Shown here: positions 7,591-60,800 of the stretch, in pieces
Layout: the number at the start of each line of letters is the position of its first letter
Numbering within the stretch: position 1 is the stretch's first letter
Source: Octopus sinensis
Taxonomy: Eukaryota
DNA length: 64,000 bases
Reading direction: 5' to 3'
Assembly: GCF_006345805.1 (NCBI RefSeq)
Contig: NC_043015.1
Span: 46,500,001 to 46,564,000, forward strand
The notes under the pieces: generated by a model
Databases searched by the model: none
What the model was told of the DNA's origin: nothing
The model's input: the letters and a program-made list of their open reading frames with translations, nothing else
Program-made: the position numbers and the translations under genes

Positions 7591-7690
7591 CAGGTAACAA
7601 AAACATGTGTCCACAGGCATAACACACACCAATGAATAGCAGTGGGAAATAAGAAATATCTGAAAGATTCAACTGAAAGAAAGAAATTAC

Positions 7691-7909
7691 CCTGTTCGTT
7701 TGTCTCTTTTATTTCCCTTAAATGTTTATTGCAAATGTCTTGAAGTTTAATGAAGATAAAGTCACCAGCAAACTGACGAGAGACACCAATCTTACTAAAT
7801 ATCCGGCCAGGCCTGAACCCCTGCAAAGCAGAGCCCAACTGTTCAGTAGGTTTCGGACGGTTTGTTTGCATCATGTGTGACCAATCAATATTGAGGACAT
7901 CAACAATAC
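7691..7909 (-). CDS. ZC3H13: ZC3H13 exon 16 (conserved C-terminal domain)
   Basis: ctttgcag acceptor, gtaatt donor; IDWS...GSALQGFRPGRIFSKIGVSRQFAG matches the family pattern IDWS...AL..F.PG.....G.S...AG; phase 1 to 1. Confidence 0.93.
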
Positions 7910-9107
7910 CTGCAAAGAAAGTAAGAAAGGAAAATATATAAATACATATAAGAAGTTTAGAAACTTCAAGAGAATGCAAAATAATTTGTTTTTAACCCCT
8001 TACCCGGCAGAAACGAATATATGCGTTTTGACCGAAATCGTTTTTTTCTATCTCTGGTGAGTTAACTTGTCAAAAGATAGACTCGCCAAAATCGACAGCA
8101 AACGAGTTCCTTCGTCTATTATAAACTCTTTTTTGACATATTCTATATACATATAGTAAAATAAAACAATTAAAAAATATGTCTGAAAAAATACATTTAT
8201 TTTCAAAATAATTGTTGGAACTTGAAGCAGATAATGCTATAAATGATAGAGCACTGTGCTGACCTCTTCTATTTACAGAGAAGGTGGGTTCGAATCTCAG
8301 GGGTAGCCTTCAACCTTTTCTCACCAAAAGAAATTTTAATCCAATATTCACATATTTATAGCTTTACAAATACAAATGTATTTATCATGAACAGTTTTAA
8401 AAAAAAGGGGGACATTTGCAGTGAAGAAATAAAAAAATAATGAAGCAAAACAAATCAATAATAATTAAGCAATAAACACGAAAGTCAAATGTAAAATTCT
8501 GCTATAAAAGCTTCAATCATCTTCATCCTTTAACATCTGCTTTCCATGCTGGCATGGATGGGTTGGATGGTTTGACCAGAGCTGGCAAGCTAGAGGGCTG
8601 CACCAGATTCCAGTCTGATTTGGATTGGCTTCTACAGCTGGATGCCCTTCCTTAGAAATAGAAACTTCTCAGAAAGATTTTTCGTAAGTGTAGGTAGGGC
8701 TATATAGTTAAGAAGCTTGCTTTGTAACGACATGGTTTGGGGTTCAGTCCCACCATGTGGCATTTTGGACAAGGGCTGACCATTGCCCTGTGAGTGAATT
8801 TTGTAGACAGAAACTGTGTGGGAATCTGTTATGTATGTGTGTGTGTCTTTGTGTTTGTCCTCCCTTCCTGCAGCGTGGCAACCAGTGTTGGTTTGTTTAT
8901 GCCCCATTAATTTAGGTGTCTTGGCAAAATAGGTCAATAGAATAAGTACCAGACTTGAAAAACATGTACTTGGATGAATTTATTCGACTAAACCCTTCGA
9001 GGCAATGGCAGAAAGAAGTAAAAAATAAAAGATAAATCAATGGAGGTCTGGACCTTGGTGATGAATTGTGGGGAAAAGGTGCCACGTTTTGAAGTAACTA
9101 TTAACGT

Positions 9108-9369
9108 ATATATTTAAGAGATGAGGAATTATGTACATTATTTACATTCAATGGATATTTGTCCTCATCTTGTGTTGTGAACACATTTCGGCTGATATAT
9201 CATCCAGACTTCATCAGGTGTCTTGGGGAAATTTCGAACCTGGGTTCTCATTCCTAAGGTATTTTTCGATGTTATTATTTTTATTATTATTGTTCAGGTC
9301 ACTACTTGGAATCGAACTCGGAATCTTGGGGTTAGTAGCCCGCACTCTTAACCACTACGCCATATGCCC
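9108..9369 (-). mobile_element. tRNA-headed SINE-like element with a hammerhead-like (Penelope-type) tail
   Basis: Head GGGCATATGGCGTAGTGGTTAAG...GAGTTCGATTC carries A/B boxes; tail GACAC-CTGATGA-stem-GAAA-TGTGTT. Confidence 0.7.
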
Positions 9370-9375
9370 ATGGGA

Positions 9376-9463
9376 CTGGCCGGATATTTACTAAGATTGG
9401 TGTACGTTGTCAGTTTGCTGGTGACTATATCTTCATTAAACTTCAAGACATTTACAATAAACA
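9376..9463 (+). other. Inverted intronic copy of ZC3H13 exon 16 segment 7723-7810
   Basis: 81/88 nt identical, without gaps, to the reverse complement of 7723-7810. Confidence 0.95.
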
Positions 9464-10045
9464 ATTATTAAAAATACCTTAGGAATGAGAACCCAGGTTC
9501 GAAATTTCCCCCAAAACACCTTAAGATGGCTGGAGGGTATATCAGCCGAAATGTGTTAACAACAAACAAGATGAGAGCAAATATCCGTCATCATCATCAT
9601 CATCGTTTAACGTCCGCTTTCCGTGCTAGCATGGGTTGGACGGTTCAACTGGGGTCTGGGAAGCCAGAAGGCTGCACCAGGCCAGTCAGATCTGGCAGTG
9701 TTTCTACAGCTGGATGCCCTTCCTAATGCCAACCACTCCGTGAGTGTAGTGGGTGCTTTTTACGTGCCACCGACACAGGTGCCAGATGAGGCTGGCGAAC
9801 GGCCACGGCCGGATGGTGCTTTTTACGTGCCACCGGCATGGAGGGTACGCAAGGCTGGCAACGGCCACGATCGGATGGTGTTTGTTACGTGCCACCAGCA
9901 CGGAGGCCAGTCGATGTGGTGCTGGCTACGGCCACGTTCGGATGGTTGAATGTAAATAATGTAAATAACTATTAACGTGTTGCTCAGTGAATGTACAACT
10001 ATTTCACCAAATACATAGCAAATTTAATAAAAAACATAAGCTCAC

Positions 10046-10171
10046 TTTTCTTTTTCTTCTTCTTGTCCCCACCGACTCCAAGGAGATCCAGGTCCAAATC
10101 TCCTGTCATGCTCTCTTCTTCTGAACTGATCTCTTCATACTGCATACTTTCAGTGTCTAGATCGATACCAT
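10046..10171 (-). CDS. ZC3H13: ZC3H13 exon 15 (YEEISSEEE motif)
   Basis: aacttcag acceptor, gtgagc donor; acidic YE.IS.EE motif preceding the C-terminal domain; phase 1 to 1. Confidence 0.88.
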
Positions 10172-10311
10172 CTGAAGTTAAAACAGAACCTAATTCAACT
10201 AAAACAGATAATTATGATGCCTCGTTTCTCCTGTCGCATTTGCAAACAATAGAAAAAGGAAAATTATTCATGTAAATTTCTATATATTAATAATAATAAT
10301 AATAATAATAT

Positions 10312-13872: not shown

Positions 13873-14190
13873 AGTGTTGGCGAATCTCAGGAAGCATGGA
13901 AATTTTGAAGGATGCAGTGCTCCGACAACTAACAATTGATGCCGGCAGTTTGTTCTATGCTTCAAGCATCAGTTGTTAGTTGTCGGAGTACTGCATCCTT
14001 CAAAACTTCCATGCTTCCTGAGATTCGCCAACACTACACCTGATTTTCTCCCCTCCATACACACGCAAGCATGTATCTGATACATACACTGTTCGCTTCC
14101 CAGACATTTGTAAATTAAAGCACATGCTTTATACGCACTTTTGACAAGTTGTGGTGCACGTGAGCACTGTATACAATAATTTCATTATTA
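13873..14190 (+). mobile_element. CR1-like LINE 3' end with 5' inverted duplication
   Basis: Colinear non-inverted copy at 37345-37650 encodes ...EAWNKLLASVVSCRST.SFK...RQHYT*; tail (att)n. Confidence 0.8.
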
Positions 14191-19620: not shown

Positions 19621-20540
19621 CTGTAAAGGTAAATAAAACAATAATCAGTAGAGCACAAGGCCTTGGATTTATAGAGCAACAAAAATGAGACTAGGTGATG
19701 CTGATGGCTTTATGGATACTGTTTATATTAGTTGGACTGTTGTCCTCATCTTGATAGTACTTTCACTGTTTCAGTTGTTATACAAACCAGCCTTTTTCAG
19801 GTGTTTTGTATTCATCATCATCATCATTGTTTAACGTCCGTTTTCCATGCTAGCATGGATTGGACGGTTTTGACTGAGGCTGGGGAACCAGATGGCTGCA
19901 CCAGGCTCCAGTCTTGATCTGGCAGAGTTTCTACAGCTGGATGCCCTTCATAACACCAACCACTCTGAGAGTGTAGTGGGTGCTTTTTACGTGCCACCTG
20001 CATGGGGGCCAGTCAGGCGGTACTGGCAATGACCTTGCTCGAACCCTTTATTTGATCTCCAGGGGCACACTGCTCTCATTCTGCTCTCTGCGTTTTGTGA
20101 CATTTTTTTGCTTCAGTTGAATCATGTGAATTACATTAGTGCCTTACCTGAGATTGAACTCAGAGCATCTAGGTGTCTGCACTGCATTAACCAATGTCTT
20201 CATCTATGAGCAGAGCACAGTAGATAAAGACATTGGTTAATGCAGTGCAGTCATTTAGAGGTTCTGAGTTCAATTCCAGGTAAGGCACTAAGGTAATTCA
20301 TGTAACTGAACTAAAGCAAAAAAAAAAAATGTTACAAAATGCAGAGAGCCGAATAAGAGCAGTGTACCCCTGTAGATCAAATAAATGTTTAAAGGGTTAA
20401 ATTCGAAATTCTGATACAACAACCAAGTTCAATGCAAGATACCTGAAGAAAACATAGTGAAAGCAACACTCAAGATGAGGCATTAGTCTGACTACTATAA
20501 ACAGCAAACATAATATAAATTCTTCATCTCAGAAATATAG

Positions 20541-37344: not shown

Positions 37345-37650
37345 AAACAGCACAGCTCCTATGACTTTAGGAAACATTTTTTCACGCTGAGAGTTGATGA
37401 AGCATGGAACAAACTGCTGGCATCAGTTGTTAGTTGTCGGAGCACTGAATCCTTCAAAACTTCCATGCTTTCTGAGATTCGCCAACACTACACCTGATTT
37501 TCTCCCCTCCATACACATACAAGCATGTATCTGACTCATACATTGTTTGCTTTCCAGACATTTGTACATTACTGCATATATTTTATACGCACTTTCTGAC
37601 AAGTTGTGGTGTACCTGAGCACTGTATACAATAATTTCATTATTATTATA
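37345..37650 (+). mobile_element. CR1-like LINE 3' end
   Basis: F.LRV.EAWNKL motif, short 3' UTR, (att)n tail. Confidence 0.75.
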
Positions 37651-53285: not shown

Positions 53286-55098
53286 ACCAGGCCTTAACAG
53301 ATTGGAAGTGTTATCATGTACATGTTTTGTCTTGGTATAAAACATAGGCTACAGCAAATATTCTGATCAATACCAGAAATTTGCTCATCAGTTGCATGAC
53401 CATAACCTGTTGAGCATGTCCCTTAGTAGCTGATATGTGCATCTCTGATCACGAGCAGAAGTAGTGGGGGAGCAACATAGCCATGTGTTGAGAGGAATTC
53501 TTTGGGATTTGAATAATTCACCTCTGAAAACATGTTTTGTTTATCATCCTTAAACAAACCTTATTTGGGGATCTTTTGGGCATAATGGGCTACTCGACCT
53601 GAAGAAAATTCTAACAGTTTACTTTGATATGAGATCACCATGTTACATGCATATGGTTGTGATACATGTACCCTTATCAGATGGATAGTCATGATGGGTA
53701 TATTGGGCTTCATGTATTTGTACCCCGTGTCACTTTGATGACATGTGCTGCTCTCTCAATAATAATAATAATAATGAACTTATGGTATATAGTGCTCAGG
53801 TACGCTACAACTTATCAGAAAAAGTAACCTGCATGAACAGTATATAGAATTCATGTTATATGAAAGTAAATAAAAGGTCAAGGAAAAAAAAATGAATAAA
53901 AAAATTTTTTAATGGCAAATGTTTACACTAAAACTTAGAATGGTACTCTACTATGACTAGAATCAGATGAAAACTCTAAAGAATCTAAATAATAAAAAAA
54001 TGGTCAAAATTCTCCACTTTAAAAGGTCAGAAAATATATTAACCATAACTGTTTATCTCATGTCTCACAAAGGCTGATTAAAGAATGAAACAATTGGGTA
54101 CAGCTGTTTGGAAGATGACGAGTCAGTATGGTTGATTGGATATATAGCTGGAGACAAGCAAGTACACACCCCTAAACGCAGAAATATACACAAACAGAGT
54201 GAGATAGAGAGAGAGAGAATAATTTATCAACTGAACACACTTGGCATAAGCACTTTCCTTCTCCTCATACACATGGAGAAAGAGAGGGAAGGAGGAGAGA
54301 TCAAGAGAAACATTAAAATGTTTGATGTCAAGGAAGACAGTGGCAAATCACCAATGCCAAAACTGATGTGCTGGTACATACCCTGTTGAGTATGGACAAT
54401 AACAAACATTAAACAAGACTTTTTAGCCCTTTTGATACCAACCCACCTGAGATCACTTGATACCAACCCACCTTGGTTCACTTTTTAAAGTGATCTAAAT
54501 GAAAACATTCTACCAAAATTTCATACTAACTTATACTCCAAACTCCAGCTTCTCAATCATCATCATCATCGTTTAACGTCCGTTCTCCACAAAATCATTT
54601 TAGTAAATTCTGTGTTACTTTCAAAATTAAACAGAAATAAAAACAGTGTATTTCAACAGGAATATGGTAATAAAAGGGTTAAATATAAACTTCAGTATTT
54701 CTCTCGAGTTTTTGACCCAATGTTTTCAAATCTCATGTGATCACTCACTCCAAAATCTCCCTTGGCCTGTATGTACCAAAGGGTATTTTACACACTACTA
54801 ACCTACAATACTTTACACTCAATGCATCTATATTTCATGTATGTAACAGTGCAACTTTCGCTTCTGCACAAATAACTAATGCCTTTGTTGCACATCTGCT
54901 TTATCAATTCCCTAATGCTTACTTTTTGTAAAAAGCAGCATTTTACACCCCAACAACCTATCAGCCATATTTAGTTTATTTCTTTCCAACTATTGCAAAC
55001 TCAAATCCATTGAGTTCACAGCCAGAAAGCATCACACTATTTTGTAGTGAATCATAAAATACATTTTTCTTTTGTATTTCTTATGAAACATTTAATAC

Positions 55099-55375
55099 TT
55101 GCAGCGTGGAAGGTGTTTATAAGCCATTTAAGAAACACACAAAAACCGTTAGATTCACTTCAACATTTAAATGCAGCACAAAGTTTTGTCGGTGAACAGG
55201 TCATGGTCTCAAAGCGATGAAAATATTTTGACAAATTAAATTTAAATGTTGAAGTGAATCTAACGGTTTTTGTGTGTTTCTTAAATGGCTTATAAACACT
55301 TTCCACGCTGCAATTGTTTTCGTTCCAGCACACGATCTCAGATCAAGTCACTCGCTATGCAAGTACATCTCCGTA
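55099..55375. mobile_element. Fold-back retroelement fragment (Penelope-like inverted arrangement)
   Basis: 74-bp arms 55099-55172 and 55240-55313 with one mismatch; 12-bp TSD atttaatacttg. Confidence 0.65.
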
Positions 55376-57809: not shown

Positions 57810-60800
57810 TCTTTCTGTTTTTTTGAAGCATTCGCTCGTTACAAGGTCCTTAGACCACCTGAAAACATAAGAGCTACTAGAGTAAAATGGACACTAGACA
57901 GAAGTCAATAGGTGACGATGTACTTTAGACTTAAAAGACTGGAGGTCATATTGAAGAGAAAAACAAGACTGTGGAAGGGAATTCCAAAGTTCAGAGGTGC
58001 GAGAGAAGAAACTGGTACTGTAAAGTGCTTTATGACACTTAGGAGGTTGTACATTATATTGATAAGAACTGGATGCAAGTCTAGTAGATCGCTGATAAGT
58101 TCTTAACCCAGAGAAGAGAGTTGAGCTGAACAATGTCCATGAAAATACTTATAGAAAAGAGACAAAGAAGCCACACAATGATGATGAGAGAGTGAATCTA
58201 ATTTAGAAGGTAGATCAGGACCCAAAGCATTACAAATATGGCGATGAATACGGTCCAACAGAGTTAAACACCTGCCTATATGTGACACCAGTACTAAATG
58301 CAGGGGCGAATGGTGGACTTATGTAAGTTCTCCAAGAAAAATCATTAGAGAAAGTCACTCCTAGGAGAAGAAGAGAGTGGCTCTCGGGTAAGTCAATACC
58401 ATCCATTGAAACCGATGGCAAAGAAGTTTAGTTTTCGATGGACTGAACGTTACAAGCCATTTCCTACCCCCACTCAACAACAGATCAAAGATCATTCACA
58501 AGCCATTTCCTACCCCCACTCAACAACAGATCAAAGATCATTCTCAAGGTTAGCAGCGATCTCAACCTTAGAGTACAAAGTAGAGTCATCAGCATAGACT
58601 ATGAGCTGACAGATGATATGATCGGGCAGATCATTGATAAAAAGAAGAAAGAGAGTTGGGCACAGGATAGATCCTTGAGAAACCTCATAGAATAACTAGA
58701 TGAAGATTGACCATCAAGAATAACCTTGATCCTATGGTCTTAAAGGTTAGAGAAGATGATGTTCAGCATGAAACCTGACACACCAAAGGATTGGAGGAGC
58801 TTCCATAGAAGTTCAGCATGCCAAACCCTATCAAATACCTTAGAGATATCAAAAGCAACTGCCCTAGCTTGACCAGATACATTCAAGGCACGATAAACAC
58901 TCGGATATATCAGTAAGAATATCAGCAGTAGACTGTCCAGTACAGAAACCATATTGAGAGTCAGAGAATAAACAATTTGAGTCAAGATATTTTACAAGAG
59001 AGTCATTAATCAAGGACACAAAAACCTTACTGATGATTGGTAGTAGACTAATTGGTCTATAATTACGAGGATTAGATCAACTGCCACAGTTCTTAAAGAA
59101 AGGAAGAACAGTTGGGAATTTCTATAAACAAGGAAAACAAGATTCTGAGATCACTTTCGGAAGAGCCTAGATAAGACAGAAGACAACTCAAGAGAGCACT
59201 TCTGAAGAACAAGGACTGGAATATCATCAGGTCCAGTTGCTTTACATGGATCCAACCATGTCACATTGGCTGCAACCTTAGCAGAAGAAATATGACAACT
59301 GTGTAACAGTTTATCAGTTTTGAGAAAAACATCAGGAAGTGGATGATAAGAGTCACTGAGAAGAGAGTGAGAACTAAACAGTTGAGCAAAGACTTCTGCT
59401 TTATCATCAGATGTCAAGACCTCAGGCCCGTTAAATAAAGGAGGAATAGAAGACTTATTGTTATCTCTAGGACTTTTAATAATTCTCCAGAAGTCACGAG
59501 AGCCTACTTTCTGGGATGATATATGATCATGAATGTGTTGCTCGTAGTCTGATTTAGCATCACGAATGAGAGCCCTACAGTGATTACAAGCAGAGGTAAA
59601 AAGTTGTTTATTCACTGCAGAATTATCTCGCTGAAACTGGAGGAAAAAATTATGATAGGCAACAGCAGCAGCACAAGCAGGTGAAAACCAGGATGAGGAC
59701 TGCGATTTCAGCTGGTATTTGCGAGATGGTATGAAGGCGGCGAGCTGGCAGAATCATTAGAACGCTGGGCAAAATGCGTAGCCGTATTTCGTCTGCCGTT
59801 ATGTTCTGAGTTCAAATTCCGCCAAGGTCGACTTTGCCTTTCATCCTTTCGGGGTCGATAGATTAAGTACCAGTTATGCAGTGGGGTCGATGTAATCGAC
59901 TTAATCCGTTTGTCTGTCCTTGTTTGTCCCCTCTGTGTTTAGCCCCTTGTGGGTAGTAAAGAAATAGGTATGAAGGTGTTAATACCAGTAGGAAATCCAA
60001 GTAGGAACTTCCCCAGCACAGGCCTCAACAGGTTTAGCAAAAATGCTGGTCCAAGGAACGTCACAAAAATTGTCCCAGTCACCACGAACATAGCCAAATA
60101 GAGTACGATTAATTGGGGACTTCTTGGCATCAGAACAATTCAGAGAAACAACATGATCAGATCACCCGAGTGGAAAATCATGACAAACCTTACAGATATC
60201 AGGATTTGATGCCAAAAAGAGATCAAGGAAGAAGGAAGATTGGTCATCATGATCAGGAATGCAAGTAGGAAAGTCAACAAGTTGTGTGAGCGATTGAGAA
60301 AGTGCAAAAATGCCAGATGCATTATGAGAAAACTTAAGTCACTCTTCATAGTGAATATTAAAATATTAAAAGATGAATATATTCGCAGAGTTATGAAACA
60401 AGAGAGCCTTATTGATGCTGTCAGAAACAGACTGTATAAAAGAACACTTTTGAGAAGATGGAAAACGATAGAGAAAGAACAAGTAGCTAATTGAGTGCAA
60501 AAGAGAAAATCAAAACACATGGAAGACTGCGGAGCATCCTCAAGATCTTCCTCACAAATGATGGGAAGACTGACACGAGCAAAGATGCCCAAGCCATGCA
60601 TACAATTGCGAGAGTCCTTCCGGTAGAGAGGAAGATAGCCAGGAGCGACAAAATCATTTGAAATGTCAGGACTGAGATTTGTCTCATTCAAAGCAAGGAT
60701 GTCAGGAGAGTTCTGAGCAAGAAAAGAGTCGACATCCGTAAGATTAGAACGGAGACTACATATATTGGAGAATGCAATAGTAAAAGGAGCTGAGTCTGGT

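Follow-up and report, generated by a model that had tools for sequence, protein, structure and literature searches.

The ZC3H13 gene and its intron

The window, by which is meant the whole stretch of 64,000 nucleotides of Octopus sinensis DNA that was analysed (contig NC_043015.1, positions 46,500,001 to 46,564,000), contains a minus-strand gene with a coding exon at 7691-7909 (-) that is 100% identical to residues 1493-1565 of protein P0002, named ZC3H13, of Octopus sinensis. P0002 maps as 18 coding exons within the window, the exon at 7691-7909 being the 16th of these; residues 1-45 of the protein are unmapped in the window, and the real number of this exon may exceed 16.

The exon is preceded by a GT-AG intron at 7910-10045 (-). 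RNA-like contigs of two runs, X9 and X12, connect 7907 directly with 10044 at GT-AG borders, and since these contigs splice across 7910-10045, the insertion described below is intronic, with the exon at 7691-7909 as the next exon downstream of it. The run comparison covered 7620-10230 and used contigs only, from four of the 24 listed runs (X3, X8, X9 and X12); the assignment of X9 and X12 to RNA is a guess, which is backed by the spliced joint. Beyond the rows listed, the comparison yielded a further 897 joints, 102 variant rows and 3,563 loose ends. In the first mapped ZC3H13 intron, at 57897-60338 (-), there are reading frames broken by stops and frameshifts, which we take to resemble a decayed LINE (endonuclease/RT-like wording); 59154-59753, inside these frames, gave no Pfam match.

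Anatomy of the insertion

The insertion is bounded by a 13-bp direct repeat at 9095-9107 and 9966-9978, the left and right target-site duplications (TSDs), which is AT-rich at 10 of its 13 positions. The two 13-mers are exactly the same and are the only occurrences in the window when both strands are scanned; in a chance control, 20,000 pairs of 40-bp stretches were drawn at random with equal spacing, and 50 of them shared a word of at least 13 letters. Because the first three bases of the right TSD double as the end of the inserted element, the length of the duplication is 10-13 bp.

Within the TSDs lie two copies of one element in head-to-head orientation. The left copy, at 9109-9369 (-), is full-length (261 bases) and has its 3' end pointing left, and the right copy is 5'-truncated, with its 3' end pointing right; the right arm at 9470-9586 (+) and the segment 9153-9266 of the left copy are inverted repeats with 88.9% identity (10 substitutions and 3 gap columns in 117). 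The right copy is split at 9588-9945 by a later, unrelated and abundant repeat, family A, which has a CAT-repeat end and 62-bp internal units, is present in many copies in the window, and presumably lies on the minus strand and is of RTE-type kinship. Beyond family A the right copy resumes with its leftover 3' end at 9946-9968 (+), which pairs with 9129-9151 at 22 of 23 positions and has its last three bases in common with the TSD. A 3' extension, or tail, of 20-23 bases at 9109-9128 (-) is found in the left copy only, the right copy stopping at the equivalent of 9129-9132.

No open reading frame for the reverse transcriptase (RT) and GIY-YIG endonuclease of a Penelope-type element (PLE) was found in 9095-9978, and the element is thus not an autonomous PLE. 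Rfam returned merely chance hairpin and snoRNA matches over the locus, and a match to MIR2606, with 38 bits where the cut-off is 140, was discarded as reflecting the inverted arms. Family A has inserted next to or into relatives of the element at both 9588 and 19812, which may be a matter of chance given its abundance. The element's 3' end, at 9119-9170 (-), is predicted to fold into a stem-loop, with the right copy ending within its 3' side and the left copy just past its base; this stem-loop recalls the stem-loop initiation of reverse transcription reported for a PLE (PMC11167929).

The captured exon piece

The spacer between the two copies holds 95 bp of exon sequence at 9373-9467 (+), with 2-3 filler bases on each side. 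Its source at 7719-7813 (-) is entirely within the exon at 7691-7909, and the alignment of 9373-9467 (+) with 7813-7719 is gap-free, with 9 substitutions and 90.5% identity (E 2e-33). The piece is co-oriented with the right copy; its + strand reads as exon sense, and on the ZC3H13 transcript it is antisense to the exon. Since it contains no splice junction, an RNA template and a DNA template are inseparable for it. Four of the nine differences fall within five bases, at 9404-9408 (P 0.013 by chance), and possibly reflect one copying error or micro-rearrangement. A difference-free block of 38 bases adjoins the loop, at a P of 0.087, which is not significant, so neither selection nor conversion is claimed for it.

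The preliminary description of this DNA, made from its letters alone, had already named the direct repeat, the inverted arms, the exon-16 fragment lying between them and the splitting of the right copy by family A, and in each case the measurements given above bear it out.

The element family

The 5' part of the element, at 9295-9369 (-), is a tRNA-like head with a box A-like motif (9362-9352) and a box B-like motif (9317-9309), which suggest a Pol III promoter. The search used a loose pattern, which matched 2 loci in the window against 0.3 expected by chance. SINE heads often fail tRNA matching of the ARAGORN or Rfam type, and here neither program gave a tRNA match for the head, nor is the head predicted to fold into a cloverleaf; of the earlier characterization of the element as tRNA-headed, it is thus the box motifs that stand, and not a tRNA match or fold. 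The head belongs to the family, because contigs from other loci, with 84-90% identity, link head, middle and tail in overlapping pieces. Family copies in the contigs extend about 6 bases past 9109, with loose ends lying before 9109.

The 3' part of the element, whose identity the preliminary description had missed, contains a minimal hammerhead-like motif of PLE type, at 9180-9222 (-) in the left copy, where the core is without mismatch, and at 9515-9557 (+) in the right copy. In both arms the motif consists of a 5-bp helix I, the core, one extra base, a long helix II (6-7 pairs) closed by G-C, and GAAA, and in both the same three bases of helix III, behind 9551, are missing. A hammerhead descriptor, which was composed after the sequence had been seen, matched the two arms only in 64 kb and gave 1 match in 30 simulated windows; the Rfam hammerhead models gave no match in 9000-10100. 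CGT or TGT is present behind 9551 in 69 contigs of X8 and 73 of X3. The CGT-bearing family copies gain a palindromic helix III, and so have all the listed features of the minimal hammerheads of metazoan PLEs (PMC4209133), namely helix I, the core, the extra base, G10.1-C11.1 and palindromic 15.2-16.2, helix III being complete only in these copies.

The family is abundant: variant rows comprise up to at least 128 contigs, and the summed depth in X3 and X8 is 4-5 orders above that of unique exon sequence, a figure which is not a copy number. An exact-pattern scan found no further copies in metagenome contigs or viral contigs. As in tRNA-derived SINEs, the copies are short, dispersed, abundant and 5'-truncated, and by the loose pattern a box A and a box B lie inside the element at its 5' end; the 3' end consists of a stem-loop and unique sequence, in place of the poly(A) or simple repeats of a LINE-type 3' end. 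The family, with Pol III-like boxes before a PLE-type hammerhead tail, is likely a PLE-driven SINE.

Other arrangements of the family and other hairpins

Contigs from other family loci show a head-to-head joint, 9366 to 9528, with no extra spacer (one contig in each of three of the four runs, the shorter side having 22-24 letters), and a partial-tandem joint, 9146 to 9109 (a single contig in one of the four runs). Inverted and partial-tandem insertions with a short TSD, as expected of a non-autonomous PLE derivative, are therefore both seen, the TSD at the 9-kb locus and the joints at other loci in single contigs. An older related head-to-head pair lies at 19710-19808 (-) and 20456-20513 (+; relative at about 20395-20540), with 69% identity to the 9-kb copy and 78% between its two members over 59 bases; between the members lie a family A copy and a hairpin element, and no TSD or locally copied spacer was found for them. 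The suggestion that this family generally places exon-complementary sequence beside its targets is not borne out here: one of the 18 ZC3H13 exons, that at 7691-7909, has a local copy in the window (9373-9467), and the two other inverted arrangements are without a locally templated spacer.

Three further hairpins occur in the window. A single-copy, MITE-like hairpin of 340 bp lies in a ZC3H13 intron at 20047-20385 (arms about 83-86% complementary, 14-base loop), and two young, near-perfect intronic hairpins, at 55094-55318 (79-bp arms, 96%) and at 13873-14035 (70-bp arms, 96%, with a partial copy at 37398-37489), are candidate ADAR substrates.

Number and age of events

The three bases missing behind 9551 in both arms are carried by many family copies, and this common loss suggests that both arms came from one template. 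The arms differ at 10 of 114 positions and the exon copy differs from its source at 9 of 95 (4 in the one 5-base cluster); among the variant rows listed, 4 of the 10 arm differences are assigned to the left arm and 3 to the right. Drift amounts to about 4-5% per arm and to 5-9% for the exon copy, depending on whether the 4-base cluster is treated as one event, and on the scale quoted in PMC13282606 this would place the insertion roughly 12-25 million years ago. Because of the shared 3-base loss, the similar decay of the three pieces and a layout that is that of published PLE inverted insertions, one integration likely made the whole structure. The preliminary description had proposed one integration with template switching; the single integration is supported on these grounds, and a template jump onto nearby host sequence is plausible, a DNA template being possible as well.

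An X3 contig spans family A, the tail, the TSD and the flank (9918-10230), and since it bridges this interval, a second organism label carries the insertion. A contig of X8 at 9961-10136 has just 5 letters on the element side and was counted neither as bridging nor as an empty site. No empty-site joint occurs among the 15 of 912 joints listed, in runs that differ from the window by about 2% or less where compared.

Origin of the structure

It is probable that the structure is the product of one insertion of a non-coding, SINE-like element by a Penelope-type RT/endonuclease, which left two head-to-head copies in a duplicated target and added, via a template jump, 95 bases of the next ZC3H13 exon. 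The TSD, the outward-pointing 3' ends, the one-sided tail, the hammerhead-like motif, the 3-base loss and the exon copy with its orientation are seen directly, and it is from these that we infer the nicking, the priming and the jump. A PLE-type enzyme, working in trans, would have made staggered nicks 10-13 bases apart in the target, with both DNA ends then serving as primers for the reverse transcription of RNA from a single source copy. The left end would have started at the distal site and been extended to the 5' head, and the right end would have started about 20 bases further in and stopped after about 140 bases, the right-hand cDNA then jumping, it may be supposed, from the element RNA to a ZC3H13 transcript still being made, at a point about 1.3 kb downstream. 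Joining of the left and right cDNAs would have completed the structure, into which family A would have inserted afterwards. In the intron today the two arms would form a hairpin that holds the exon copy in its loop; hairpin and insertion alike are most likely neutral, the insertion being a by-product.

Typical of PLEs are a copy that is inverted and 5'-truncated and a tail of 30-40 bp on one of the ends (PMC8557442); the one-sided tail at the octopus locus has 20-23 bases, or 26-29 to the family's usual end, as against the published 30-40. In a rotifer, PLE insertions are known that combine inverted head-to-head pLTRs with a TSD of 9-10 bp and, on one of the repeats, a tail of 31 bp; host sequence captured between the repeats, with the TSDs around it, is described there too (PMC3846280). 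A PLE protein studied in purified form cuts both strands of its target and extends them, favours AT-rich DNA, and starts at two RNA sites, which define the tail (PMC11167929). For LINE-1, insertions with RT products of opposite orientation, with template switches and, in three cases, with genomic pieces of local origin are on record (PMC11702581; PMC13174262). The capture of host sequence has a precedent in both PLEs and LINE-1. The orientation of the exon copy fits a host-transcript template, orientation alone being a 1-in-2 match.

The main rival to two-ended priming, and LINE-1 precedents exist for both, is a route which we regard as possible though doubtful, in which the left end alone was primed in the same single integration, its finished cDNA jumped onto an exon DNA strand, then turned back on itself, thereby producing the right arm, and was linked to the second target end by way of a 3-base overlap. 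Self-priming on an antisense template has been proposed for head-to-head PLE repeats (PMC3846280), and the common 3-base loss is accounted for equally well; this route, however, requires two jumps, while the right end is about 20 bases shorter than the left, as expected from two RT start sites, and the exon piece runs in the same direction as the right copy, which a switch on RNA predicts.

Rather unlikely is a reading in which the element is an ordinary LINE-dependent SINE, its hammerhead likeness a relic or chance and its inversion LINE-type twin priming. Twin priming does produce pieces of opposite orientation with discrete 12-18-bp TSDs (PMC13174262, PMC11702581), and the lack of an Rfam hammerhead match agrees with such a reading; but the element ends at its 3' side in neither poly(A) nor simple repeats, the two arms share overlapping sequence and each starts near the 3' end, the family form has the minimal hammerhead features, and tandem as well as inverted joints are seen.

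It is least probable that separate events were involved, with the left element inserting first and its 5' junction suffering a DNA break later, which was repaired with patches from exon and element. Local templating in break repair would likewise yield the common 3-base loss, and the exon copy seems somewhat more diverged (9/95) than each arm (about 5/114). Against this, the right copy runs at its 3' end without a gap into an intact right TSD, the divergences agree once the 4-base cluster is removed, and the outcome is a common PLE layout.

The question of exon editing

The exon copy is intronic and is antisense to an exon of the same transcript, as an editing-complementary sequence must be. 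It might now be a working sequence of this kind, which pairs with the exon in the pre-mRNA so that ADAR recodes ZC3H13, a role that we consider improbable. The copy lies 1,560 nt upstream of the exon on the transcript and the predicted duplex has -138 kcal/mol; the pairable part of the exon contains 24 adenosines, 20 of which would be non-synonymous if edited, and coleoids recode extensively (PMC9068888). Against this, the arms are only 203 nt apart, compared with 1,560 for the exon pairing, and with -163 kcal/mol are predicted to form first; opening the left arm is predicted to cost about 49 kcal/mol. In the preferred fold of the 2.4-kb transcript, which allows nested structures only, there are 105 arm pairs and no pairs of the exon copy, and topology would hinder the formation of a 95-bp helix in a closed loop of 203 nt. 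The claim that the exon had been captured into dsRNA finds no support in this fold, in which the copy is left in the loop. In addition, the decay of the exon copy is no less than that of the arms.

The contigs of both RNA-like runs, X9 and X12, have no A-to-G change in the exon; as contigs drop minor variants, this absence argues only against majority editing in the X9 and X12 samples. The sole exon difference, a C>G at 7717 in X12, is outside the copied part and is also present in X3 and X8. One supplementary file of PMC8382921 has no entry for ZC3H13, and no description of an editing-complementary exon copy made by a transposable element was found in the titles, abstract openings and passages of the literature consulted. 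An exon-editing role is possible at low odds, and the family is the more interesting subject.

Relation to known systems

The closest parallels are the EN+ PLE insertions with inverted pLTRs (Adineta vaga Pen2/Pen2a/Pen3a; Penelope/Poseidon, Naiad; PMC3846280, PMC8557442), which share the head-to-head repeats, the short TSD, the tail at one end, the AT-rich target and the capture of host sequence within the TSDs. The octopus element differs from them in having no ORF, a tRNA-like head and a shorter tail, and also in that its captured piece has an identified source, an adjacent exon of the host gene. The minimal hammerheads in the pLTRs of metazoan PLEs (PMC4209133) have the same short helix I, long helix II, extra base and G-C closing pair, the palindromic helix III being present in the octopus CGT copies, and dual hammerhead motifs on opposite strands, 100-700 bp apart, are likewise noted there; in contrast, both copies at the octopus locus lack the helix III bases and are predicted to be inactive.

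A Pol III-headed hammerhead repeat has its counterpart in the SINE-like elements of schistosomes, the named example of which we take to be SM-alpha. In these (PMC6765202, in whose reference list Sj-alpha appears) a Pol III-type promoter is likewise followed by a hammerhead in a short non-coding repeat; they are, however, tandem repeats with a canonical ribozyme, whereas the octopus element occurs in scattered copies, and its minimal motif and inverted junctions are of PLE type. Animal non-LTR retrozymes (10.64898/2026.07.22.740005) are also non-autonomous, hammerhead-bearing and proposed to be PLE derivatives, but they are defined as tandem repeats, and the available part of that source describes no tRNA-like head. 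Complex LINE-1 insertions (PMC11702581, PMC13174262) show the same extension from two ends, central joining, kept TSD and extra host sequence at the junction, while depending on another enzyme class and being poly(A)-primed, unlike the octopus locus. The PLE insertion pattern with host capture, the Pol III promoter followed by a hammerhead (in schistosomes) and the proposal of non-autonomous PLE derivatives are thus already known.

No description of an abundant octopus element with a tRNA-like head and a PLE-type minimal hammerhead tail was found in the titles, abstract openings and passages of the literature consulted. Ohshima and Okada reportedly described tRNA-derived retroposons of octopus in 1994; going by the title, these are likewise abundant octopus repeats. 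The present family could be one of their three retroposons, or an entry of Repbase or Dfam.

Implications

If captured exon pieces guide ADAR, they would give a concrete origin for editing-complementary sequences in a lineage that recodes, for which the present evidence falls short. A more far-reaching proposal, to which we assign a low probability, is that an abundant Pol III-headed octopus SINE rides Penelope-type enzymes, writes inverted pairs into introns and sometimes copies antisense pieces of neighbouring exons, and that it is in this way a mutational source of ADAR substrates and recoding sites. The mechanism of the inverted junctions of PLEs has been called undefined (PMC8557442), and the family, if it is moved by PLEs, would offer many dated insertions for their study. 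The locus itself offers a traceable donor of the captured spacer about 1.3 kb from the target, and with it a test of the distance and strand bias of host DNA capture. A SINE moved by a Penelope-type enzyme would, if confirmed, widen the usual rule that it is LINEs that move SINEs.
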